From NCBI GenBank assembly GCA_018780035.1, contig JADMKE010000021.1, forward strand, positions 27,844-91,843: a stretch of DNA of 64,000 nucleotides, in the 5' to 3' direction. The notes beneath the pieces are model-generated. The model was given only the letters and a program-made list of their open reading frames with translations, had not been told where the DNA came from and made no database searches. The translations under genes and the position numbers were made by a program. The DNA is from Candidatus Sericytochromatia bacterium. Its GTDB lineage: Bacteria; Cyanobacteriota; Sericytochromatia; UBA7694. Positions 2,351 to 64,000 of this stretch are shown piece after piece (within the stretch, counting starts at the first letter, position 1; every line of letters starts with the position of its first letter).

Positions 2351-3697
2351 TTAGTAGCGACGCCCCTGAGTAGCTGTTTGGGGAGCAGGTGCGTAAGCGG
2401 CACCTTGTTGCGTCGCGTAAGTGCCATAGGCAGGAGCGGTTCCATAACCGGGGGTTGTGCCGTAACCACCGCCATAAGCGGGGGTTGTACCATAACCGGG
2501 AGTAGTTCCGTAGCCACCCCCATAAGCGGGAGCCGTGCCGTAACCGGGGGTGGTACCATAACCACCGCCATAACCAGGGGTCGTACCGTAACCGGGAGTA
2601 GTGCCGTAACCACCGCCATAAGCAGGGGCCGTACCATAACCAGGGGTGGCATAAGGATCACTGCCGGGAATGCCCATGCCGCTGCCGTTGGGAGGGCCAA
2701 ATTTGAGAATTTTGCTGTCTTTATTGCTGGTACCAAAGTCTGAAATATAGACATTGCCAGATTCATCAATGGCGATGCTGGTGGGCTGTGCTGCATTGTG
2801 GGCAAAGCTGGAGAGCAATTGGCCATTCATGCTGAAGCGTTTGATTCCACCCTGTTCGAGCACATAAATATCACCGGTACGGCCATCACCCGCTACGTCA
2901 AGCGGATTGACCAAACCCTGCATAATCACATCACGGGGCATGCCATTCAGATCCAAAACACCGATACGGCCATTGGCGATGAAAAAGACCTCACCACGGC
3001 TGTTGGCACCGATGCCAGCCAGCGCGGGAATCCCATTCATGGGAGCACGGGCCATACCGCTCATATCACTGCGTTCGAGCATGCCGTTGGCCGCCACGAA
3101 AATACCATTATTGCTACCAGCCAGGTCCATCCCGCCGGTGCCTTTGAGTTCTTTGATATTGCCGCCAGAAGCACTCAATGAGTACATGCCTTTGTTGGCA
3201 TCCAGGGCGAAGAGATTGCCACCGGCCAGGGCCACACCCTGCAAGGTGTCATACATTTTGTGGCTCAGACCCAGGAGGCTGGAGCCCAGATTTTTCCAAT
3301 TTTTGCCAGTATTGGCGTCCATTTTGACGATGGTGCCTTTTTTGGAGAGGCCACGGGTATCCACGGCGGCGATATAAATGCTGCCACCGCTGACGGCGAT
3401 GCCACGACCTTGCCATTCATTTAAGAAAGAATCTTGATCGACTTCGTATTGACCCAGACTGGGGTTGGCCACTTGGCTGGGTTGGGTTGGCATATTGCCA
3501 ACAGGGTATTGATCTGTGGGATAGGTAGCGGGGGGAGTCATGGGAGCGGTGTCTACAGGGGGCAATGGGTTGATCGAAGGAGGTTGGGTGGGCAGCACGT
3601 CGGGAGTCACGCCGGGAGCGCGGCCACCACAGGCGGTGAGGCTCAAACTGGCCAGCAAAAGGGTAATTGTAAATGCTGACTTCTGACTCCGTTTCAT
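2351..3697 (-). CDS. NHL-repeat beta-propeller lipoprotein with C-terminal Gly/Tyr/Thr/Pro-rich repeat tail
   Basis: The N-terminus MKRSQKSAFTITLLLASLSLTACGG is a lipoprotein signal with an LTAC lipobox. An AGGAGA RBS is upstream. A Pro-rich linker follows, then repeated G-x-IYV/a-D...G motifs typical of NHL propellers. The C-terminus is about 3.5 copies of GGYGTTPGYGTAPAYG. Confidence 0.7.
   Translation of the reverse strand: MKRSQKSAFTITLLLASLSLTACGGRAPGVTPDVLPTQPPSINPLPPVDTAPMTPPATYPTDQYPVGNMPTQPSQVANPSLGQYEVDQDSFLNEWQGRGIAVSGGSIYIAAVDTRGLSKKGTIVKMDANTGKNWKNLGSSLLGLSHKMYDTLQGVALAGGNLFALDANKGMYSLSASGGNIKELKGTGGMDLAGSNNGIFVAANGMLERSDMSGMARAPMNGIPALAGIGANSRGEVFFIANGRIGVLDLNGMPRDVIMQGLVNPLDVAGDGRTGDIYVLEQGGIKRFSMNGQLLSSFAHNAAQPTSIAIDESGNVYISDFGTSNKDSKILKFGPPNGSGMGIPGSDPYATPGYGTAPAYGGGYGTTPGYGTTPGYGGGYGTTPGYGTAPAYGGGYGTTPGYGTTPAYGGGYGTTPGYGTAPAYGTYATQQGAAYAPAPQTATQGRRY
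2400..2650. repeat. 48-nt (16-codon) imperfect tandem repeats encoding the GYGTTPGYGTAPAYGG tail
   Basis: Direct inspection shows recurring ccataaccgggggt.../ccgtaaccaccgccataagc... units. Out-of-frame shadow ORFs (2254..2826, 2378..2743) are created by this repeat. Confidence 0.7.
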
Positions 3698-23253: not shown

Positions 23254-26200
23254 TTACACGACCGGCTTCTGAGGCAAGATCTCTTCAATCGCCAGCAAAA
23301 TAGATGAGACCTGCCCTGTTTGGTTAACGATCCGGCGGGCATTGAGACTGAGCACCCGCAAGCCAATTTTTTTAAAGGCATGAGACAAAACATAATCTAG
23401 GCAAATCGGACTTTGAGACAAATACTGTTCAAACAGGACTCTCAAGGCCGGGATATCCCATTCTTGCTGCTCCAAATCAAAGATCAACTGCCCAATAATG
23501 GCTTCTGGTTCCAGCTCAAAAAAACGGCCAAATGCAGCGTTTGCTGAGCGAATCCGCAAATCGTCAGACAAAAGCAAAAGGGGTTGATGTGCCGTTGCCA
23601 TCATGGCATTGAAAGTCTGATTGATGGTGTCAGTTAAAGCAATCTGCGCCTGCTTGGCAGCTTCAATATCCACAAAGGTGATCACAGCACCTTCAATCAC
23701 ATTTTCCAACGTCCGATAGGGCAGAATATGCATGGCAAACCATTTTCCCGCTTTGCTCTGGACTTCAACATCAACAGGAATAAGCGTATCCAAAACCCGC
23801 TGAATATCTTGTGAGAGCTGATCATAGCCCACCAGATTGGAGACGATATGGGCCACAGGGCGCCCCATGTCGCTCTGAATCAGATTGATAATCCGGGTTG
23901 CGGCAGGCGTAAAGCGCAAAATATGAAGATCATGGTCAACAAAGACTGTGGCAATGCCTGTGCCGGCCAAGAGATTGTTCATATCGTTGTTGACACGGGA
24001 TAAATCTGTCACCTTGGTCTGCAATTCTGTGTTGATGGTGGCCAACTCCTCGTTGATGGATTGCAATTCCTCTTTGGCTGTTTCCAACTCTTCGTTGGTG
24101 GACTGCAACTCTTCGTTCATCGACTGCATCTCTTCATTGGAAGCTTTGAGTTCTTCATTGGCCGTTTCCAGCTCTTCATTGATGGTACTCAAAAAGGCTT
24201 CTTTGGCCTGCAACTCCTGTTTCAGTGCGTTAATTCGGGATTCAGAACCGCTGTCGGAACCCGTTCCCGATCCCGCTTCTGCCCTGGCCCCCCGCTCATC
24301 ACCTGCTTGGGGCAATAAGCCCTGGTGGTCGTTTTCAGCAGGCTTGGCCTGTTCGAGCAAAACCAAGAACAGCGTTTCCTCTCGCCCCTCACCCGGCCCC
24401 CACGTGAGTGGGTAGACCTTTAGGTCGGTTAGCGTATAATCGCCATTGGTTTTGACGCGTAACCCGTTACAATGCACGATTTCGACATGCTGAGAGGCCT
24501 TGTGCAAGGCCAATGTCAGATCCCGCCCCAGGCCTTCTCGGGCCATTTTGATGATATTGTTGACGCCCGCTTCCCCTTGGGCTGGCTCGAGGTAAGAACC
24601 TGTACGGCCATGCAAGTAGAGAATATCGCCATTTTTTTTCACAAGTGCAGCAGTTGGTACAGCGTTTTGCAAAAGCGCTTGTTCCGTCAATTCGCGCAGG
24701 GAGAGCTTTTCCTGTGAGCCTTTTTGGGGGTTCACAGGGGAAAAGCGCAGATCCAAGCTCAGGGCCGGTGAAACAAATTGTGTCAAACCCCGCTGGCGAG
24801 AATCGGGCTTGCGCCGATAGATTTTCTCTTTGCGATCTTCTGTGCTAAACAAAGCTTCGGTATCACCCACCGTCTCAGAGGTGCCCAAAAACAAATACCC
24901 TGTTGGGTTTAAAGCGTAGTGAAAGAGCGGAATTATTTTTTTTTGTAAGGCCGCCCCCATATAAATCAATAAATTGCGGCAGCTGATCAGATCCAATTTG
25001 GAAAAAGGCGGATCTTTAATCAGATCCTGTTCAGAAAAAATCAACCTATCGCGAATGGTCTTGTGAATGCGATAGCTGCTCTGCTCCTGCTCAGCAGATG
25101 GGGGCTCAAGCGAAAAGAAACGGGCCAGGCGCTCAGCGGAGAGACCGGCCGTATTGCTGAGAGGGTAGACCCCAGCTCGGGCCGTTGCAATGGCTGATTT
25201 ATCGATATCTGTGGCAAAAATTTGCACCTTTGGATTGTGTTTACTCAGCGCCTGCTGTTCGGCCAACAAAATAGCAAGCGAATACGCTTCTTCGCCGGTG
25301 GAACAAGCGGGCACCCAAACCCGAATCGTGCTCTGCTCAGATAGATTCGCAAAAAGCTGGGGTATCACCTTTTTTTCTAAGGCGAGAAAGGCCTCTGGAT
25401 CGCGAAAAAAATGGGTGACCCCAATCAAAAGATCGCGAAAGAGAGCGTTGATTTCGGCCGGCTCTGCTTGAGCGTAAACCACATATTCATCCAGGGTCTT
25501 GAGCTGATGCAGGGCCAAACGGCGTTCAATCCGACGATAGAGGGTATTGAGCTTGTATTGAGAAAAATCATGCCCGGTCTGGACAGATAAAAGTGAAAAA
25601 AGGGTGTTTAATCCTGGTTCAGGATCCGATTCTGAGTTCGATTCGGATCCTGGCAAAAAGCCTGTGTCGGACTCCTGAGAGGGTTTGGGTTCTTGTACGG
25701 GAAGAATTGGAGCAAGGCGAGTAAACGTCTTTTCAACATAAGCCATTAGCCGTTCTGGCATCTCTTTGGGCAGGAGTTCAAAGTCCACCAGCCCAGTGGC
25801 CAGTGCACTGCGGGGCATGCCATCGTATTCCGCAGAGCCCAATTCTTGTACCAGCACCCATCCGCCAGCTTCTTTGATGGCCCGCAAACCCACGGAGCCA
25901 TCCGAACCGGTGCCCGAAAGCACAATGCAAATCGCACGTTCATGCAACTCTCGCGCCAAAGATGAAAAAAAGAAATCGATCGGCAGGCGTTGGCCTCGGG
26001 GAGCAGCGGGTTCGGATAATTGCAAGCGCCCCTTGAGCAGGGCCATATCGCAATTGGGTGGAATGATATAAACACAATTTGGCTGGATCTCTAAGCCATC
26101 TGAGACCTCAAAGACCTGCATCTGGGTGTATTTCTGAATCAATTCAGCCAAGAGGCTTTGATGGTCGGGGGCCAGGTGTTGAACCAGAACAAAGGCCATG

Positions 26201-26376
26201 CCGGGTTCGCACTCCAGCGGCAAGCCCGAAAAAAAGGCCTCAAAGGCAGCCAGTCCGCCCGCAGAAGCGCCCAAGCCCACGACAGGAAAAGAAAGCGACA
26301 GAGCAGGGGAAAGATCCATTGGCATAACCCTATCATTTGTTTGAGAGGTCAAGTCAACGATGCCTGATCCTGTCAA
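23254..26376 (-). CDS. chemotaxis methylesterase CheB / methyltransferase CheR fusion with coiled-coil and PAS sensor domains
   Basis: CheB catalytic region (GASAGGLAAFEAFFSGLP...ICIVLSGTGSDGSVGL). CheR SAM motif (IRVWVPACSTGEEAYSLAILLAE). A heptad-like NEEL repeat coiled coil, then two PAS-like segments. The stop abuts the start of the histidine kinase. Confidence 0.9.
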   Translation of the reverse strand: MTGSGIVDLTSQTNDRVMPMDLSPALSLSFPVVGLGASAGGLAAFEAFFSGLPLECEPGMAFVLVQHLAPDHQSLLAELIQKYTQMQVFEVSDGLEIQPNCVYIIPPNCDMALLKGRLQLSEPAAPRGQRLPIDFFFSSLARELHERAICIVLSGTGSDGSVGLRAIKEAGGWVLVQELGSAEYDGMPRSALATGLVDFELLPKEMPERLMAYVEKTFTRLAPILPVQEPKPSQESDTGFLPGSESNSESDPEPGLNTLFSLLSVQTGHDFSQYKLNTLYRRIERRLALHQLKTLDEYVVYAQAEPAEINALFRDLLIGVTHFFRDPEAFLALEKKVIPQLFANLSEQSTIRVWVPACSTGEEAYSLAILLAEQQALSKHNPKVQIFATDIDKSAIATARAGVYPLSNTAGLSAERLARFFSLEPPSAEQEQSSYRIHKTIRDRLIFSEQDLIKDPPFSKLDLISCRNLLIYMGAALQKKIIPLFHYALNPTGYLFLGTSETVGDTEALFSTEDRKEKIYRRKPDSRQRGLTQFVSPALSLDLRFSPVNPQKGSQEKLSLRELTEQALLQNAVPTAALVKKNGDILYLHGRTGSYLEPAQGEAGVNNIIKMAREGLGRDLTLALHKASQHVEIVHCNGLRVKTNGDYTLTDLKVYPLTWGPGEGREETLFLVLLEQAKPAENDHQGLLPQAGDERGARAEAGSGTGSDSGSESRINALKQELQAKEAFLSTINEELETANEELKASNEEMQSMNEELQSTNEELETAKEELQSINEELATINTELQTKVTDLSRVNNDMNNLLAGTGIATVFVDHDLHILRFTPAATRIINLIQSDMGRPVAHIVSNLVGYDQLSQDIQRVLDTLIPVDVEVQSKAGKWFAMHILPYRTLENVIEGAVITFVDIEAAKQAQIALTDTINQTFNAMMATAHQPLLLLSDDLRIRSANAAFGRFFELEPEAIIGQLIFDLEQQEWDIPALRVLFEQYLSQSPICLDYVLSHAFKKIGLRVLSLNARRIVNQTGQVSSILLAIEEILPQKPVV

Positions 26377-30926: not shown

Positions 30927-32633
30927 ATGCACAGTCTCTCAGCGCATGATACCCTGAGACTCTGTTTGGCTTTGGCTTTGATGCTGGGTCTGGGCCGGAT
31001 TTTTGCAATTTTGAGCCAGCGCTTACAACAGCCCGCTGTCTTGGGGGAGATTGTGGCGGGCGTTGTCTTGGGGCCCACACTGCTGGGCGTGGTTTGGCCA
31101 GAAGCCTTTGGCTTTTTTTTCCCGCGCCAAGGCCCATTGGGACTGGCTTTAAGTGTGTTCACCAGCCTGAGCATTATCCTCTTTCTCTGTGTGGCGGGCA
31201 TGGAAGTGGATCTCAATACCGTTTGGAAACAGGGCAAACGGGCCTTGATTGTCGGCACCGGCGGCATGGTCTTTCCCTTTGTTTTGGGTTGGGGCAGTGT
31301 GTGGCTCTTTCCCAGTCTATTTGCAGCTGGCACCCCCAATTTACAGCTTTTCAGCATCTTTTTTGCCACAGCGCTGTCCATTTCTGCTTTGCCCGTGATC
31401 GCCAAAACCCTGATGGATCTGGCCCTGCTGCGCTCTGATTTGGGGGTGGTGATCATGGCTGCCGCGATTATGAATGATCTAATGGGTTGGATTATTTTTG
31501 CCCTTTTGATGGGGCAAATGCAAAGTGATGGTCACCATACCGCCACCCCCGGTCTGACCACGATTGTGATGATCTTGCTCTTTGCGGGTTTGATGCTCAC
31601 AGCCGGCCGTTGGGTCTTTAACAAGAGCTTGCTTTGGCTTTCGGCCCATACAGAGGGCCCCGGCCCCATTTTAAGTCTGGCAATCTGTGGGGCATTGCTC
31701 GGTGCCGCAGCCACCGAGGCCCTTGGCATTCATCCCATTTTTGGTTCTTTTTTGGTTGGAGTCGCATTGGGCAATTCAGCCCACCTGCTCGAACGCAACC
31801 GCCAAACCCTGGAACATTTTATTTCCTGTATCCTGGCGCCTCTATTTTTTGTCAGTATTGGGCTCAAAGTCAATTTTGTCGCTCATTTTGATTGGAAATT
31901 AACCTTGGTTGTGGTTGTGATTGCCTGTCTGGGCAAAATTGTCGGCTGCAGCCTGGCCGCTTGGTGGAGTGGCATGCAATTGCGGGAATCTTTGGCCGTC
32001 GGCTTTGGGCTGAATGCCCGAGGAGCAATGGAGATCATTCTCGGGCTGCTGGCCTTGGAGTCGGGGCTGATCAAAGAAAATATGTTTGTGGCTTTGGTGA
32101 TTATGGCTTTGCTGACCTCGATGCTCTCAGGGGGAATGATTCGCTGGATTCTGCAACAGCAACGCAAACTCACATTGGCAGATTATTTGGATTCCCGTGC
32201 CATTGTTTACCGCCTTGAAAGTGAAAACCACGAGAGCGCCATTGCGCAGCTCTGTCAACGTTTGGCTCAGATCAGTGGTTTGCCCGTGGCCCCTCTGCAA
32301 TCAGCGGTCTTGGATGAAGAATCGGTATTGTCGACCGGCCTGGGCTACGATATCGCAGTCCCCCACGCGGGGGTCAAAGGTTTGCCAGCTCCCCTGCTCG
32401 CAGTCGGTCTGTCTCCAACAGGTCTGAATTTTAACGCCCCAGATGGTCAAAAAGCCCACCTGATACTGCTTCTGCTCACCCCAGAGGAAGACAAAGTTTT
32501 GCAATTACAGCTCTTTACCGAGATTGGCCAGGTCTTTAACAAAGAAGAAGATCGCCAAGCCTTTTTGAAAATGGACAATTTCACCGAACTCAAGGCCTGG
32601 GTTCGGGGCCGCCTGCACAGCAATGGACATTAA
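30927..32633 (+). CDS. CPA2-family cation:proton antiporter fused to C-terminal PTS EIIA(type 2/Ntr) regulatory domain
   Basis: AAGGGAGA RBS. 12-13 TM Na_H_Exchanger core. The C-terminus DIAVPHAGVKGLPAPLLAVG...HLILLLL is PTS_EIIA_2-like with the phosphorylatable His. Confidence 0.8.
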   Translation: MHSLSAHDTLRLCLALALMLGLGRIFAILSQRLQQPAVLGEIVAGVVLGPTLLGVVWPEAFGFFFPRQGPLGLALSVFTSLSIILFLCVAGMEVDLNTVWKQGKRALIVGTGGMVFPFVLGWGSVWLFPSLFAAGTPNLQLFSIFFATALSISALPVIAKTLMDLALLRSDLGVVIMAAAIMNDLMGWIIFALLMGQMQSDGHHTATPGLTTIVMILLFAGLMLTAGRWVFNKSLLWLSAHTEGPGPILSLAICGALLGAAATEALGIHPIFGSFLVGVALGNSAHLLERNRQTLEHFISCILAPLFFVSIGLKVNFVAHFDWKLTLVVVVIACLGKIVGCSLAAWWSGMQLRESLAVGFGLNARGAMEIILGLLALESGLIKENMFVALVIMALLTSMLSGGMIRWILQQQRKLTLADYLDSRAIVYRLESENHESAIAQLCQRLAQISGLPVAPLQSAVLDEESVLSTGLGYDIAVPHAGVKGLPAPLLAVGLSPTGLNFNAPDGQKAHLILLLLTPEEDKVLQLQLFTEIGQVFNKEEDRQAFLKMDNFTELKAWVRGRLHSNGH

Positions 32634-33072
32634 ACCGCTCAGCGAGAGCAACACAACCATGCCCGCGCGCCAATGCTCCTGTCGCCCCGGTGAATTTTTA
32701 AACCTGCCTCAGCCGCTGTTTAGCATGGTCTGCCACTGTCAGACCTGCCAGGCTTTTTTTGGCAAGCCCTATACCGATGAATGTACATTTTGGTTTGGAG
32801 ACGTGGCGGGAATTTCTCTGGAGAACATGGAGTTTAAAGCATACCAGTCGCAGCTATCCCCCATTCGCCGTGGCACATGCCTGCTCTGTGGCAAAGTGAC
32901 CTGCTGTCTGGCCAAAGTGGGACCAATTGTGCTCTTTTTGATGGTGTCAAGCGATCAATTGAGGCAGGAAAACTGCCCAAAACCAGTCTCCCATATCTAT
33001 TACCACCGCCGATTGGCCAACGCAGCAGAATCAAGCCCGAAAGATCTCTGGCCATTTTTTCAGCCAGCTTGA
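32623..33072 (+). CDS. Cys-rich small protein, possible GFA/Mss4-like zinc-binding fold
   Basis: CSCRPGEF...CHCQTCQ...CLLCGKVTCC cysteine pattern. 11-nt overlap with the antiporter gene. Confidence 0.35.
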   Translation: MDIKPLSESNTTMPARQCSCRPGEFLNLPQPLFSMVCHCQTCQAFFGKPYTDECTFWFGDVAGISLENMEFKAYQSQLSPIRRGTCLLCGKVTCCLAKVGPIVLFLMVSSDQLRQENCPKPVSHIYYHRRLANAAESSPKDLWPFFQPA

Positions 33073-33158
33073 GATTGTCCGAGCCGTTGTTTCCAGTCTT
33101 GGACAGCGTTTGAAACACAGGGCACAGCATTCAGGCACAAAAGATTAAAGCCTGTGGC

Positions 33159-34514
33159 TCAGGGCTGCGGAGCCCCATAGACCACCCAGGTCGCAAAGGT
33201 CTCCGAAATCTTGAGCGAACGGGCCACGTAATTGCCAGGATAGGCCTTGACGTAGCGCAAAAAGGCCTGCAAATCTGTCTCGCCAATCACCATCATCACT
33301 TCAGACAGTGGCAAATTGGCATAAGGACCTTCGGTTGCCGGTGGAATAGCGCTGGCACGGGGCGCGCATTCGCGAATGGAATAAAGCGCCATTTCCATCG
33401 CCTGGGGATCGACAATCATTTTGCTCACGGTATAGCGGCTATTGGCATAACGCGAAAAGTCAAAGAGTGGCTGATCGTAATTATCCGTAAAGTCCACATT
33501 TAATTCATGTAAATCGACAAAGCTGACAGGGGTGTAATTTTGAACCGGTGGTGGAGGCTGTCCGGGCGGATAGGCAGGATCTCCGGGTGCCATAGGCTGC
33601 TGGCCATGCTGATAGGGCAAACTGACTGGGCTTTTGTGCCGCAATTGATCGAGCAAGCCTTTAAAAGCTTGGCCAAACGCCTCTTTGAGCTCTTTTTGAA
33701 CATGCTCTTGAATCTCAAGCACCATATCCGTGTAATAGGTAAGCTTTTGTGCCAGAAATTTGTATTTGGCGAGCAGCAGGCGAACATATTTTGCAATTGG
33801 CCCAAGCAAATCCAAGAGCGAATTACGGGGAATCAGGTGTTCAGGGGTATTGGAACCTGGGTGAACCGGGCGAAAGGTTTGACCTGTTTCTTCATATGGG
33901 GATTCCTCTGAATCTGTGGCAAAGAGCTGGCCTTCCCCCAACATCTGGCGGTAATAGTCCTCAGCCGTTTTGGGTTTGCGCTTGGGACGGGTGGTAGGCG
34001 GGGGCGCGTCATAAGGGTTGTAGTCAGAATGTGGATCCGCATAAGTTTGGTTGGAGCCATAATTCGGGTCGTAATAGCCCTGGTTGGGGTCTGCTGCGTA
34101 CTGCTGGTTGGGGTCATAATTCGGGTCGTAATAACCCTGGTTGGGGTCTGCTGCGTACTGCTGGTTGGGGTCATGGTATGTCTGGGACTGCGCTTGATAA
34201 GCCTGATTTTGGTCGTACATGCCTTCAGGGGCGACATAACCCGAGGCATCTTGCTGGTAATAGGGATTTTGCTGCTGGTGAGTTTGGCGCTGTTTGACCT
34301 CTTGCTGCCGGTCCAATGCCTCATCCGTCAGGGTCAGAGAACTGGTCACACGGTAAGATGTGACCCCTTCTCCCCTGGCACGTCGCTTTTTACGGTTGTT
34401 TTGCTTATCCACCCTTTTATTATAGCTTCTGAATTTACAGGATTTCCAGAAAGCATACAAAAAGGGGGTATACTGAAGCACATTTTTGAGGAGAAATCCC
34501 GATGGACTATGCAC
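33159..34514 (-). CDS. hypothetical protein with Q/N/Y/P-rich low-complexity N-terminal half (true start uncertain, probably internal)
   Basis: DPNQQYAADPNQGYYDPNY is duplicated. The C-terminal 250 aa are globular with no motif I recognise. The longest ORF would share its first 13 nt head-on with the divergent yjbR-like gene (its first codon lies at 34512..34514), so an internal start, for example the Met near 34220, is more likely. Confidence 0.5.
   Translation of the reverse strand: MHSPSGFLLKNVLQYTPFLYAFWKSCKFRSYNKRVDKQNNRKKRRARGEGVTSYRVTSSLTLTDEALDRQQEVKQRQTHQQQNPYYQQDASGYVAPEGMYDQNQAYQAQSQTYHDPNQQYAADPNQGYYDPNYDPNQQYAADPNQGYYDPNYGSNQTYADPHSDYNPYDAPPPTTRPKRKPKTAEDYYRQMLGEGQLFATDSEESPYEETGQTFRPVHPGSNTPEHLIPRNSLLDLLGPIAKYVRLLLAKYKFLAQKLTYYTDMVLEIQEHVQKELKEAFGQAFKGLLDQLRHKSPVSLPYQHGQQPMAPGDPAYPPGQPPPPVQNYTPVSFVDLHELNVDFTDNYDQPLFDFSRYANSRYTVSKMIVDPQAMEMALYSIRECAPRASAIPPATEGPYANLPLSEVMMVIGETDLQAFLRYVKAYPGNYVARSLKISETFATWVVYGAPQP
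34059..34172. repeat. two tandem 57-nt units (one mismatch) inside the Q/N-rich protein gene
   Basis: ataattcgggtcgtaata(g/a)ccctggttggggtctgctgcgtactgctggttggggtc appears twice back to back. Confidence 0.8.
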
Positions 34515-34855
34515 AACTTCGTATTTTTTGCCTGGATTTAAACGGCGCCGAAGAAACTTGGCCCTTTGGGCCCGAAGTAACCGTGTTTAAATTAGCGGGA
34601 AAAATGTTTGCCCTGTGTAACCCCGCCCAATCCCCTCTGCGCATCAATCTCAAATGTGAACCGGGTCTGGCAGAATTGCTGCGCGAAAATTATGCAGCGG
34701 TTCAGCCCGGTTGGCACATGAACAAACGCCACTGGAACACCGTCACGCTCAACTCAGATCTGCCTGATCAAGAAGTCTGTAAACAAATCGTCCATTCTTA
34801 TGCCCTGATCAAAGCCAGTCTGCCCAAGCGCATTCGCGAAACCCTCTCAGACTAA
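34502..34855 (+). CDS. MmcQ/YjbR-family DNA-binding protein
   Basis: GAGGAG RBS. PGWHMNKRHWNTV matches the YjbR signature. Confidence 0.7.
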   Translation: MDYAQLRIFCLDLNGAEETWPFGPEVTVFKLAGKMFALCNPAQSPLRINLKCEPGLAELLRENYAAVQPGWHMNKRHWNTVTLNSDLPDQEVCKQIVHSYALIKASLPKRIRETLSD

Positions 34856-34930
34856 AGGCCTTTCTCACAGGCAAATCCCAGCGGATATGCTACCCTGAAA
34901 AACAGTTGAAACCCCAACAGGAAACACACA

Positions 34931-36343
34931 ATGAGCAATTTATCTTCTCCTTCCTTTGCAATTGCGATCATGGCCGCAGGCAAAGGCACGCGCATGAAGT
35001 CCGAAACCACCCCCAAAGTCCTACATACCTTGGCCGGCCGCAGCATGATTGGCCATGTTTTACACGCATCAATGGGTCTCGAACCCGAAAAAATTCACGT
35101 GATTGTCGGCCACTGTGCCGAACAGGTGCAAAACTTTGTCGAAACCAATGGCAGCCCAGAATTGCGCTCGCGTCTGGGTTGGGTCGAGCAAAAAGAGCAA
35201 TTGGGCACTGGCCACGCAATCATGCAACTCATGCCCGTACTCGAAAATTTCAAAGGCAGCTTGATGATCGTCAATGGCGATGTGCCCCTGCTGCGCAGCG
35301 AAACCTTGCAATTGCTGCGAGAAACCCACGAAGAGTTGGATTATGCTGCCACACTGCTCACAACCAAAGTCGCAGATCCCACAGGTTATGGCCGAATTGT
35401 CAGGCATCACCAGCAATTTGTTAAAATTGTCGAACACAAAGATGCCAATGCCAAAGAATTGCAAATTCAGGAGATCAACACAGGGGTCTACGTTTTTTCT
35501 TGGCCTGTGCTGCAGCAATACCTGCCCAAACTCAGCAATGCCAATGCCAAAGGCGAATATTATTTGACCGACGTGATCGAAATGCTGGTGCAAGATCGCA
35601 TGCGCATTGGCACAGTCACCGCCGAAAACCCCCTCGAAGTCTTGGGTGTCAACAGCCGCAAAGAATTGGCTGAAATGGAATGTATCTTACACAGGCGCAT
35701 CAACGACCATTGGATGGAAGCGGGGGTGACCCTGCGCGATCCCTCGTCGATTTATATCGATAGCCAGGTTGATTTAGCGGTCGATGTCGAAATTTTGCCA
35801 GGCACGATGCTGCAAGGCCGCACAAAGATTGGTTCAGGATCTCGAATTGGCCCCAATTGCCAGATTCGCAACAGCGCCATTGGTGAAGACTGCGAAATCC
35901 GTTTTTCGGTGATCGAACAAGCCCAAATCAAAGCTGGTGTCCAGATTGGCCCCTATGCCCATTTGCGCCCCGCAACCGTGGTCGAAAAAAATGCCAAAGT
36001 CGGCAATTTTGTGGAACTCAAAAAAGCCCATCTGGGTGAGAATTCCAAAGCCTCCCACCTGAGTTATCTGGGGGATGTCGAAATTGGCAAAAATTGCAAT
36101 ATTGGCGCAGGCACCATTACCTGCAATTACGATGGCGCTCAGAAGCACAAAATCACGATGGAAGAGGGCGTCTTTACAGGCAGCAATAGCACACTTGTGG
36201 CGCCTTTGAATTTTGGCAAAGACGCCTATGTGGCAGCCGGATCGGTGATCACCGAAGACCTGCCTGCAGGCAGTTTGGGCTTGGGCCGAAGCAGACAGGT
36301 CACCAAAGAGGGCTGGTCTGAGAGCCGGCGGCCGCGCAAATGA
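34931..36343 (+). CDS. glmU: bifunctional UDP-N-acetylglucosamine pyrophosphorylase / glucosamine-1-phosphate N-acetyltransferase
   Basis: AIMAAGKGTRMKS N-terminal nucleotidyltransferase, with a C-terminal hexapeptide-repeat acetyltransferase. Confidence 0.95.
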   Translation: MSNLSSPSFAIAIMAAGKGTRMKSETTPKVLHTLAGRSMIGHVLHASMGLEPEKIHVIVGHCAEQVQNFVETNGSPELRSRLGWVEQKEQLGTGHAIMQLMPVLENFKGSLMIVNGDVPLLRSETLQLLRETHEELDYAATLLTTKVADPTGYGRIVRHHQQFVKIVEHKDANAKELQIQEINTGVYVFSWPVLQQYLPKLSNANAKGEYYLTDVIEMLVQDRMRIGTVTAENPLEVLGVNSRKELAEMECILHRRINDHWMEAGVTLRDPSSIYIDSQVDLAVDVEILPGTMLQGRTKIGSGSRIGPNCQIRNSAIGEDCEIRFSVIEQAQIKAGVQIGPYAHLRPATVVEKNAKVGNFVELKKAHLGENSKASHLSYLGDVEIGKNCNIGAGTITCNYDGAQKHKITMEEGVFTGSNSTLVAPLNFGKDAYVAAGSVITEDLPAGSLGLGRSRQVTKEGWSESRRPRK

Positions 36344-63287: not shown

Positions 63288-63386
63288 CTTACTATATATA
63301 ATCTCATTAATTTTATGCTCGATTTTCAGACTGGCATTCAGTCTGAATTACACCTTATCCCTCTATCTTATCAACAAGCTTGTATA

Positions 63387-64000
63387 ATGAAAAACATGGA
63401 CAACATACATTTTATCGGAGTGGCCGGTGGATCCGGCTCAGGAAAGTCAACCGTCGCCCGCAATGTGCTCGAAGCCGTGGGCGCAGAAGACGTCACATAT
63501 ATCCAGCAAGACTCATATTATAAAGATCTAAGTCATTTGCCTGCTGATGTACGGATGAAGCTCAATTTTGATCATCCAGACGCATTTGATAACACTCTTT
63601 TCTTTGAGCATCTCCAGGCTATCAAAAACAACTTACCCGCCGAAAAACCCCTTTACGATTTTAAAACATTTGCTCGAATTGGCTTCGAAAAAATTGAGCC
63701 GCGTAAGGTGATTCTGGTCGAAGGTATCCTCGTACTCGGCTATCAAGAAATCCGCGATATGCTCGGCATTAAAATTTTTGTCGATACCGATTCCGATTTG
63801 CGTATCATTCGCCGGATTCGCCGCGATGTACTGGAACGTGGCCGCTCGTTGGAATATGTTTTAAGCCAATATCTTGAAACCGTCAGGCCCATGCATCAAC
63901 AATTCATCGAACCCACCAAACGCTTCGCAGATATCATTATTCCCGAAGGTGGCAATAATTTGGTGGCCATGGATATGCTGATTACAAAAATTCAGGCCCT
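63387..64000 (+). CDS. udk: uridine kinase (3' end beyond window)
   Basis: FIGVAGGSGSGKSTVA P-loop, and DSYYKDL, IFVDTDSDLRIIRRIRRD. Not in the ORF table because no stop lies in the window. Confidence 0.85.
   Translation, partial: MKNMDNIHFIGVAGGSGSGKSTVARNVLEAVGAEDVTYIQQDSYYKDLSHLPADVRMKLNFDHPDAFDNTLFFEHLQAIKNNLPAEKPLYDFKTFARIGFEKIEPRKVILVEGILVLGYQEIRDMLGIKIFVDTDSDLRIIRRIRRDVLERGRSLEYVLSQYLETVRPMHQQFIEPTKRFADIIIPEGGNNLVAMDMLITKIQA

Follow-up and report, generated by a model that had tools for sequence, protein, structure and literature searches.

We describe a conserved and uncharacterised gene on the reverse strand of a 64,000-nucleotide (nt) stretch of DNA (hereafter the window) from a metagenome-assembled genome (MAG) of Candidatus Sericytochromatia, and we put forward evidence that its product carries a tandem-repeat array whose units and copy number turn over rapidly among relatives under a persistent constraint on amino acid composition. 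Our best explanation, which we hold with moderate confidence, is that the gene encodes a modular protein in which this hypervariable, composition-constrained array plays a sticker-and-spacer role, and that it is expressed from a leaderless mRNA beginning at GTG 34412. A preliminary description made from the DNA letters had proposed a prion-like protein with a fresh 57-nt tandem duplication; our results retain the duplication and qualify both adjectives.

The open reading frame (ORF) extends over 33159..34514 on the reverse strand and comprises 451 amino acids (aa) when counted from its first GTG. A protein search returned 58 homologues, with E-values down to 1e-280, including a 100 % identical match (P0002, 'hypothetical protein IV090_15930') from a Candidatus Sericytochromatia MAG, the source of the window DNA, whose locus tags take the form IV090_... 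All organism-named matches of this search were Sericytochromatia, none of its matches contained a Pfam domain, and a genome scan added one further locus (L009) from a MAG labelled Candidatus Blackallbacteria. Homologues comprise long forms of 473-599 aa, with an array rich in Q/Y/D/G/N/P, and short forms of 268-325 aa, without one. An alignment of 32 sequences (A1) contains 55 invariant columns, and the window protein bears every mark of the family: the motif TSYR(V/I)TSxLxL, the motif GxxxxATD, a central helix and a C-terminal domain ending in ...SETFATWVVYGAP. Outside the array it is 75-95 % identical to its closest relatives. Searches of Pfam, NCBIfam, PHROGs and PADLOC yielded nothing significant for the window protein or its short-form homologues, and no Rfam family matched 32500..35500. 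These comparisons identify a genuine Candidatus Sericytochromatia gene that is translated into a conserved but uncharacterised protein, and place it in an unnamed family restricted to Sericytochromatia.

The repeat that drew attention to this gene was located with Tandem Repeats Finder and by comparison of its units, with residues numbered here and below on a 417-aa protein:

34059..34172, reverse strand: two 57-nt tandem units (aa 81-99 and aa 100-118), each encoding DPNQQYAADPNQGYYDPNY.

Tandem Repeats Finder delimits the array at 34048..34174, with a period of 57, 2.2 copies, 95 % matches and a score of 233. The two full units (34116..34172 and 34059..34115, reverse strand) are one base apart, a synonymous change of GGT to GGC, just as the preliminary description had it, and the duplication is far beyond chance. 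The surrounding segment, aa 53-138, is composed of Y (17 %), Q (16 %), D (13 %), P (13 %), A (12 %) and N (10 %), with one Tyr per 6-8 residues and, in each 19-aa unit, three Asp and three Pro. For the array region as a whole, Gln and Asn amount to 27 %, aromatic residues to 17 % and Asp plus Glu to 14 %, giving a net charge per residue of -0.14.

Comparison with homologous loci reveals that the array is not a fixed feature of the protein. The arrays detected are listed below with period, copy number and match between units:

Window: period 57 nt, 2.2 copies, 95 % between units.
L001: period 54 nt, 10 copies, 90 % between units.
L002: period 42 nt, 12.3 copies, 89 % between units.
L009: period 42 nt, 15.2 copies, 92 % between units.
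L003 and L012: period 39 nt, 17.9 copies, 93 % between units.
L011: period 39 nt, 19.9 copies, 93 % between units.
L004: period 51 nt, 4.6 copies, 86 % between units.

Repeat count is thus anything but invariant across related genomes, ranging from 4.6 to 19.9 copies in relatives against 2.2 in the window, and each of the seven periods is a multiple of 3. The closest relative, L002, shares ~92 % nucleotide identity with the window flanks yet has a different unit, of 14 aa (DPNQPYGDQQQGYY), so the comparison dates replacement of the repeat unit to within roughly 8 % nucleotide divergence; L001, at ~86 % identity, has the same unit type as the window. Variation extends to closer range in a sister species, where loci from two metagenome samples (L011 and L012) agree at every one of 3,848 nt beyond the array and differ inside it (L011 1634..2409) by 78 nt, which is exactly two 39-nt units. 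Barring assembly noise, this difference is apparently a copy-number polymorphism within one population. It bears out the expectation of copy-number variation between strains, albeit in that sister species and not in the window's own, for which the collections searched contained no second assembly. The 12.3-copy and 17.9-copy proteins, in turn, are each identical in two independent samples. Judged from these alignments, the array changes much more quickly than the sequence on either side, and the 57-nt duplication represents the state, in the window genome, of an array evolving by in-frame slippage or unequal recombination. The preliminary description was therefore right about a slippage-type coding repeat, with its near-identical head-to-tail units, its period divisible by 3 and a copy number that differs between L011 and L012, but its freshness does not follow: the two copies may be a young duplication, the contraction of a longer array or an assembly collapse.

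This behaviour resembles that of variable number tandem repeat (VNTR) and contingency loci, which likewise have near-identical, frame-preserving units and may differ in copy number between otherwise identical genomes, as L011 and L012 do. Unlike many such loci, the present one encodes a cytoplasmic protein and not a surface antigen, and its units of 39-57 nt never shift the frame, so that changes in the array should modulate length rather than switch expression on or off. Metagenome contigs L013-L021 were discarded from the comparison as spurious low-complexity matches to aa 75-97, lying in unrelated Q/G/Y-rich ORFs that are not homologues; the ORF in L017 looks eukaryotic.

The pattern of differences between adjacent units bears on whether the array is translated. 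For five loci we counted synonymous and non-synonymous differences between adjacent units, and variable columns at codon positions 1, 2 and 3:

L002: 45 synonymous, 2 non-synonymous; variable columns 1 / 0 / 10.
L009: 39 synonymous, 6 non-synonymous; variable columns 0 / 1 / 9.
L004: 17 synonymous, 4 non-synonymous; variable columns 0 / 2 / 12.
L003: 26 synonymous, 13 non-synonymous; variable columns 1 / 4 / 9.
L001: 30 synonymous, 24 non-synonymous; variable columns 7 / 6 / 10.

Because the differences between units are mostly synonymous, they fix the reading frame and point to purifying selection on the encoded peptide, indicating that the array is translated in the frame given here. The preliminary description had named an untranslated region as grounds for abandoning its account, and these counts speak for translation. 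They also settle the case of a spurious ORF, in which the repeat would be untranslated or wrongly framed. What might suggest it is the disagreement between the NCBI start and the one proposed below, together with an overlapping 163-aa ORF in an alternative frame (33833..34324, reverse strand) that crosses the repeat and reads ...TPTSSTQQTPTR... there. The frame of the proposed gene is nevertheless kept in 58 homologues, all seven periods preserve it, and variable columns fall at third codon positions (most sharply in L002, L009 and L004), a pattern that supports the DPNQ frame only, refutes a misframed or untranslated repeat and marks the 163-aa ORF as a by-product of the repeat. We attach practically no credence to a spurious ORF.

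Composition is retained where sequence is not. Throughout the long-form clade, Tyr (plus Phe and Trp) accounts for 17-19 % of the array, Asp plus Glu for 12-18 %, Gln plus Asn for 23-32 % and aliphatic residues for 2-4 %, at a net charge per residue between -0.09 and -0.15, and even degenerate arrays (P0010, P0012) keep the composition of the clade. Selection keeps this composition constant: evenly spaced Tyr, spacers of Gln, Asn, Gly and Pro, and a net negative charge.

The array is embedded in a protein whose parts were delimited by combining an AlphaFold2 model with the family alignment and its conservation pattern; model confidence is given as the predicted local distance difference test (pLDDT):

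34314..34412, reverse strand: aa 1-33, basic patch NRKKRRAR followed by the invariant motif TSYR(V/I)TSxLxL, from conservation; pLDDT <50.
33999..34313, reverse strand: aa 34-138, first intrinsically disordered region (IDR1), acidic and rich in Tyr, Gln, Asn, Pro and Asp; pLDDT 33-48.
33804..33998, reverse strand: aa 139-203, second basic patch TRPKRKPKT, GxxxxATD motif and acidic stretch, from conservation.
33633..33803, reverse strand: aa 204-260, single long amphipathic helix in the AlphaFold model; pLDDT 65-81, hydrophobic moment 1.8.
33543..33632, reverse strand: aa 261-290, second linker, rich in Pro and Gln (37 % Pro), from model and composition.
33162..33542, reverse strand: aa 291-417, conserved C-terminal alpha/beta domain; pLDDT 84-95.

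The N-terminal motif is among the best conserved parts of the protein, with T23, S24 and L26 invariant in 32 sequences and S19, Y20, R21 and L28 conserved in at least 90 % of them. The low pLDDT of aa 1-33 means that the model predicts no fixed fold there, as would be expected of a short linear motif. The characterisation of the N-terminal ~130 residues as low-complexity accordingly holds for aa 34-138 and fails for aa 1-33, which comprise a conserved basic patch and the invariant motif. The GxxxxATD motif shows no variation at A165 and D167 and hardly any at G161 and T166. The second basic patch is present in all long-form homologues, so that NRKKRRAR and TRPKRKPKT bracket the acidic Tyr-rich block in every long form. 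Most of the short forms examined, which have no IDR1, carry instead a second linker with 31-36 % Asp plus Glu, and an acidic disordered segment is therefore present in most family members examined. No signal peptide or membrane helix was predicted for the window protein (maximum 19-residue Kyte-Doolittle value 1.02, no hydrophobic N-terminus), upholding the preliminary description on the former point; a Tat signal was considered and rejected, since the RR pair is present but a hydrophobic region is not. The central helix, too, is of too low hydrophobicity for a membrane helix. We conclude that the window protein is cytoplasmic and modular. In short forms the central helix reaches Kyte-Doolittle values of 1.5-1.7 and may be membrane-associated.

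Positions in this protein depend on its start codon, which the preliminary description considered ambiguous because the longest ORF collides with a divergent yjbR-like gene. That collision is real: the longest ORF (GTG 34514) overlaps a YjbR-family gene at 34502..34855 that starts at 34502 (Pfam YjbR, E 7e-29). The NCBI model (P0002, 396 aa) starts instead at GTG 34349 ('MTSSLTLT'). Comparison with homologues favours a third position:

33159..34412, reverse strand: proposed coding sequence from GTG 34412, 417 aa and a stop codon, based on conservation and homologous loci.
34413..34448, reverse strand: promoter-like element TGGAAA-18-TATAAT, found by scanning, with 10/12 consensus matches.

Protein-level conservation is lacking over the first 34 codons of the longest ORF and begins at the N-terminus MDKQNNRKKRR in alignment A1. 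Residues 5' of the NCBI start are kept down to 36 % overall identity, with ...NRKKRRARGEGVTSYRVTSSLTLT pairing with ...KSSGDGVTSYRITSYLTLS of the short forms, and the NCBI start removes part of the family-invariant N-terminal motif. The in-frame GTG 34412 (VDKQNNRKKRR) occurs in every long-form locus; in L003 and L004, where stop codons lie 11 and 6 codons upstream, it is the sole possible start before the invariant motif. Because conserved residues precede the NCBI start and these two loci admit no other, we place the start at GTG 34412, the only conserved start according to the alignment, which puts the NCBI start 21 codons too late. An internal GGAGAAGGGG encodes the conserved RGEG and probably mimics a ribosome-binding site.

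The -10 hexamer of the promoter-like element, TATAAT, ends 6 nt before GTG 34412. A Shine-Dalgarno sequence could not fit into this gap, and the mRNA is therefore probably leaderless, beginning at the GTG itself. All 11 homologous loci that were examined keep the arrangement; they amount to 9 distinct sequences, L008 and L010 being the contigs of L002 and L001 retrieved a second time. Hexamer and spacing are unchanged in L001-L004 and L008-L012, and the short-form loci L005 and L007 have GATTAT or GATAAT 5 nt before an ATG; long forms start with GTG, short forms with ATG. Leaderless transcripts are predicted on this pattern for the whole family. Elsewhere in the window, at 63380..63398 (forward strand), an extended -10 box, TGTATAAT, is followed after 7 nt by the ATG at 63396 of a uridine-kinase-like gene, whose PRK domain (Pfam, E 2e-39) begins at residue 6; this is a second leaderless candidate by the same reasoning.

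The C-terminal half had been described as globular and without recognisable motif, which is accurate for curated libraries and overlooks a widespread conserved domain. Modelled alone, the 127-aa domain attains a pLDDT of 89.3 and a predicted template modelling score of 0.82, and an exhaustive profile search retrieved 305 cluster representatives that contain it at E <=1e-3. Its signature can be written as ...N(I/V)xFxD...PL(Y/F)...G-x-(Y/F)-x-G...D-(V/L)-x-x-F-L-x-(Y/F)-V...P-x-x-Y...(K/R)-I-S-E-T-F-A-T-W, of which the Trp alone is invariant across the wider domain family; Cys349, a candidate catalytic residue, was dismissed because that wider family does not conserve it. Against PDB sequences, neither profile A1 nor profile A3 had a match below E 0.07, a Foldseek search of the PDB with the full model gave no match with E <4, the domain profile A3 recovered only 10 unnamed fragments in a word-indexed search of proteins, and tblastn of the domain against plasmids found nothing.

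The domain recurs in several architectures. A paralogous family combines it with an equal overall layout, but with a disordered region rich in Ser, Thr and Pro; one member, P0199 (IV090_11265), is encoded in the window's own MAG, outside the window, and has an N-terminal SSRxTxFLxSS motif, a disordered region that is likewise Ser/Thr/Pro-rich and not Tyr/Gln/Asp-rich, a helix and the C-terminal domain. No paralogue of the domain is encoded elsewhere in the window. Tandem copies, two or five, occur in P0080 and P0061. In proteins of 1,300-1,850 aa (P0120, P0123, P0131) the domain lies at residues ~110 to 500 and is followed by TPR arrays and a terminal CHAT or Peptidase_C14 domain, and shorter TPR proteins (P0125, P0134) also carry it. 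With the TPR-CHAT and TPR-caspase (Peptidase_C14) giants the window protein shares only this domain of 120 to 130 aa (127 aa in the window protein), which in the giants sits near the N-terminus; a Pfam search of the window protein detected none of the domains TPR, CHAT and C14, and it thus has neither TPR nor protease.

Whether the array is prion-like, as first proposed, can be judged against known systems, and the answer is half right. With prion domains recognised by PLAAC and PAPA, such as the Sup35 N-domain, it shares disorder, short tandem units of Gln/Asn, Tyr and Gly or Pro, and a variable number of repeats; its aromatic content of ~17 % also matches that of the Sup35 prion domain, 17.8 % (PMC4964860). 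The disordered region, 86-105 aa long where such domains span at least ~60 aa, contains 27 % Gln plus Asn against 44 % in Sup35N. It is, however, not depleted of charge and proline, with 14 % Asp plus Glu and 13 % Pro against 2 % and 4 % in Sup35N. It is, moreover, net negative and bacterial. The low-complexity domains of FUS and hnRNPA1 provide a second comparison: these too are polar, aliphatic-poor disordered chains with evenly spaced Tyr and adjoining Arg/Lys-rich segments as possible cation-pi partners (PMC7865556), but the window region is acidic and not near-neutral, has Asp/Pro-rich spacers and is attached to no RNA-binding domain. Phase separation of FUS is driven by Tyr-Arg contacts, and negative charges introduced into its prion-like domain reduce self-assembly and increase assembly with an Arg-rich domain (PMC7865556). 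The region is, in our assessment, only partly prion-like, and an acidic, tyrosine-rich sticker-spacer linker with Arg/Lys patches fits better. Bacteria offer further parallels. Variable Pro/Gln-rich linkers are known from ZipA, FtsK and TonB, and phase-separating disordered regions from the SSB linker, McdB and PopZ; in all of them, as in the window protein, conserved modules are joined by a low-complexity linker whose length varies between lineages. They differ from it in showing no homology and in that the window segment is Tyr/Asp-rich with recent, clean tandem repeats.

Three other explanations of the array deserve weight. Were it a true bacterial prion, the Q/N/Y repeats would form a self-propagating amyloid, a heritable activity switch comparable to Sup35, and repeat number would set the switching frequency. 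The Gln/Asn and aromatic contents noted above lean that way, as does the length-dependent prion activity that tandem expansion of short polar/aromatic units confers in yeast (PMC4964860). On the other hand, PAPA ranks charged residues and proline as strongly prion-inhibiting (PMC4964860), and in-register amyloid is inhibited when its core carries charges (PMC7865556). Every 19-aa unit contributes three residues of each of Asp and Pro, and the acidity is conserved in the clade, which suggests selection for solubility or charge. The units are nonetheless alike in flavour to the Sup35 repeat PQGGYQQYN. We consider a prion highly improbable. A passive entropic spacer, that is, a flexible soluble tether setting how far apart the N-terminal motif and the C-terminal modules lie, comparable to the P/Q-rich linkers of ZipA, FtsK and TonB and without self-association, agrees with the predicted disorder, with high Pro and Asp contents favouring expanded soluble chains, with a length that varies strongly beside an otherwise conserved protein, and with short forms that entirely lack the array and are presumably functional. 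Yet such a tether needs neither 17-19 % evenly spaced Tyr kept through complete unit turnover nor the near-exclusive synonymous variation between units, and we regard it as rather unlikely.

The remaining alternative concerns the assembly: the real array may be longer, and short-read MAG assembly may have collapsed near-identical 57-nt units to about two, in which case there is no biological duplication to explain. De Bruijn assemblers do collapse near-identical repeats, the two window units are 98 % identical, IDR1 of the window is the shortest in its clade, relatives hold 4.6 to 19.9 units, and the window species is represented by a single assembly in the collections searched. Set against this, the contig passes through the site unbroken, the two units are not perfectly identical, and the arrays of relatives were assembled full length, with P0003 and P0005 each identical from two samples. 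Collapse is possible, if unlikely, and with it comes the prospect that two copies may not be the biological state. Several further points weigh against the explanation we prefer. The copy numbers of the relatives themselves come from short-read metagenome assemblies, a sequence pattern is the sole basis for the leaderless mRNA, and in the AlphaFold model the N-terminal motif makes no confidently predicted contact with the C-terminal domain. Synteny ends outside the genus, more distant genomes have no recurring neighbour, and genomic context therefore gives no functional clue.

In the sticker-and-spacer explanation that we prefer, the array would serve as a length-tunable linker or as part of a scaffold, with its Tyr and Asp contacting the Arg/Lys patches that flank it, either within one molecule or across neighbouring ones. 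Such contacts could lead to reversible self-association or autoinhibition rather than to a heritable amyloid prion, and the C-terminal domain and N-terminal motif would act as specific binding modules. A bolder version, which we think improbable, would have the protein form a bacterial condensate or scaffold, its hypermutable acidic Tyr-rich array tuning assembly strength by copy number and its docking mediated by the undescribed domain of TPR-CHAT and TPR-caspase proteins; the extreme form of that version would make the array a true bacterial prion switch.

L001 and L002 show that, within the genus, the gene lies between yjbR-glmU-pth and a Na+/H+ exchanger. The ~555 nt separating it from the exchanger (32605..33160) hold a GFA-family ORF at 32623..33072 (forward strand; Pfam GFA, E 7e-7). 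As this stretch is missing from the syntenic L001 and L002, the comparison identifies it as a lineage-specific insertion or loss. Repeats were also observed in other genes of the window. A putative lipoprotein of 448 aa at 2351..3697 (reverse strand), with a signal peptide ending in ...LTACGG and a weak NHL repeat match, ends in a Tyr-rich array, GYGTTPGYG(T/A)... (2423..2649, period 48/96 nt, 4.7 copies); because of this second array, Tyr-rich coding repeats are not unique to the gene under study within its genome. A 1040-aa ORF at 23254..26376 (reverse strand) contains a 21-nt (7-aa) repeat at 24015..24139, encoding ...NEEL(Q/E)xx... heptads that probably form a coiled-coil segment.

The analysis corrects a mis-annotated start codon, indicates leaderless, GTG-initiated transcripts in Sericytochromatia on the strength of promoter spacing, and newly defines a domain of ~125 aa that lacks both a Pfam model and a fold match in the PDB and is shared with TPR-CHAT and TPR-caspase proteins. 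Should the condensate or scaffold version prove true, it would connect a disordered region of variable length with caspase-like signalling among cyanobacterial relatives. If our inference about the array is right, this family constitutes a natural experiment in the 'grammar' of disordered regions, in which the repeat unit has been replaced and copy number varies tenfold within a genus, with turnover apparently extending to a single population, while Tyr spacing, polarity and negative charge stay fixed. An argument that selection acts on composition, and not on sequence, in a bacterial low-complexity domain requires evidence of this kind.

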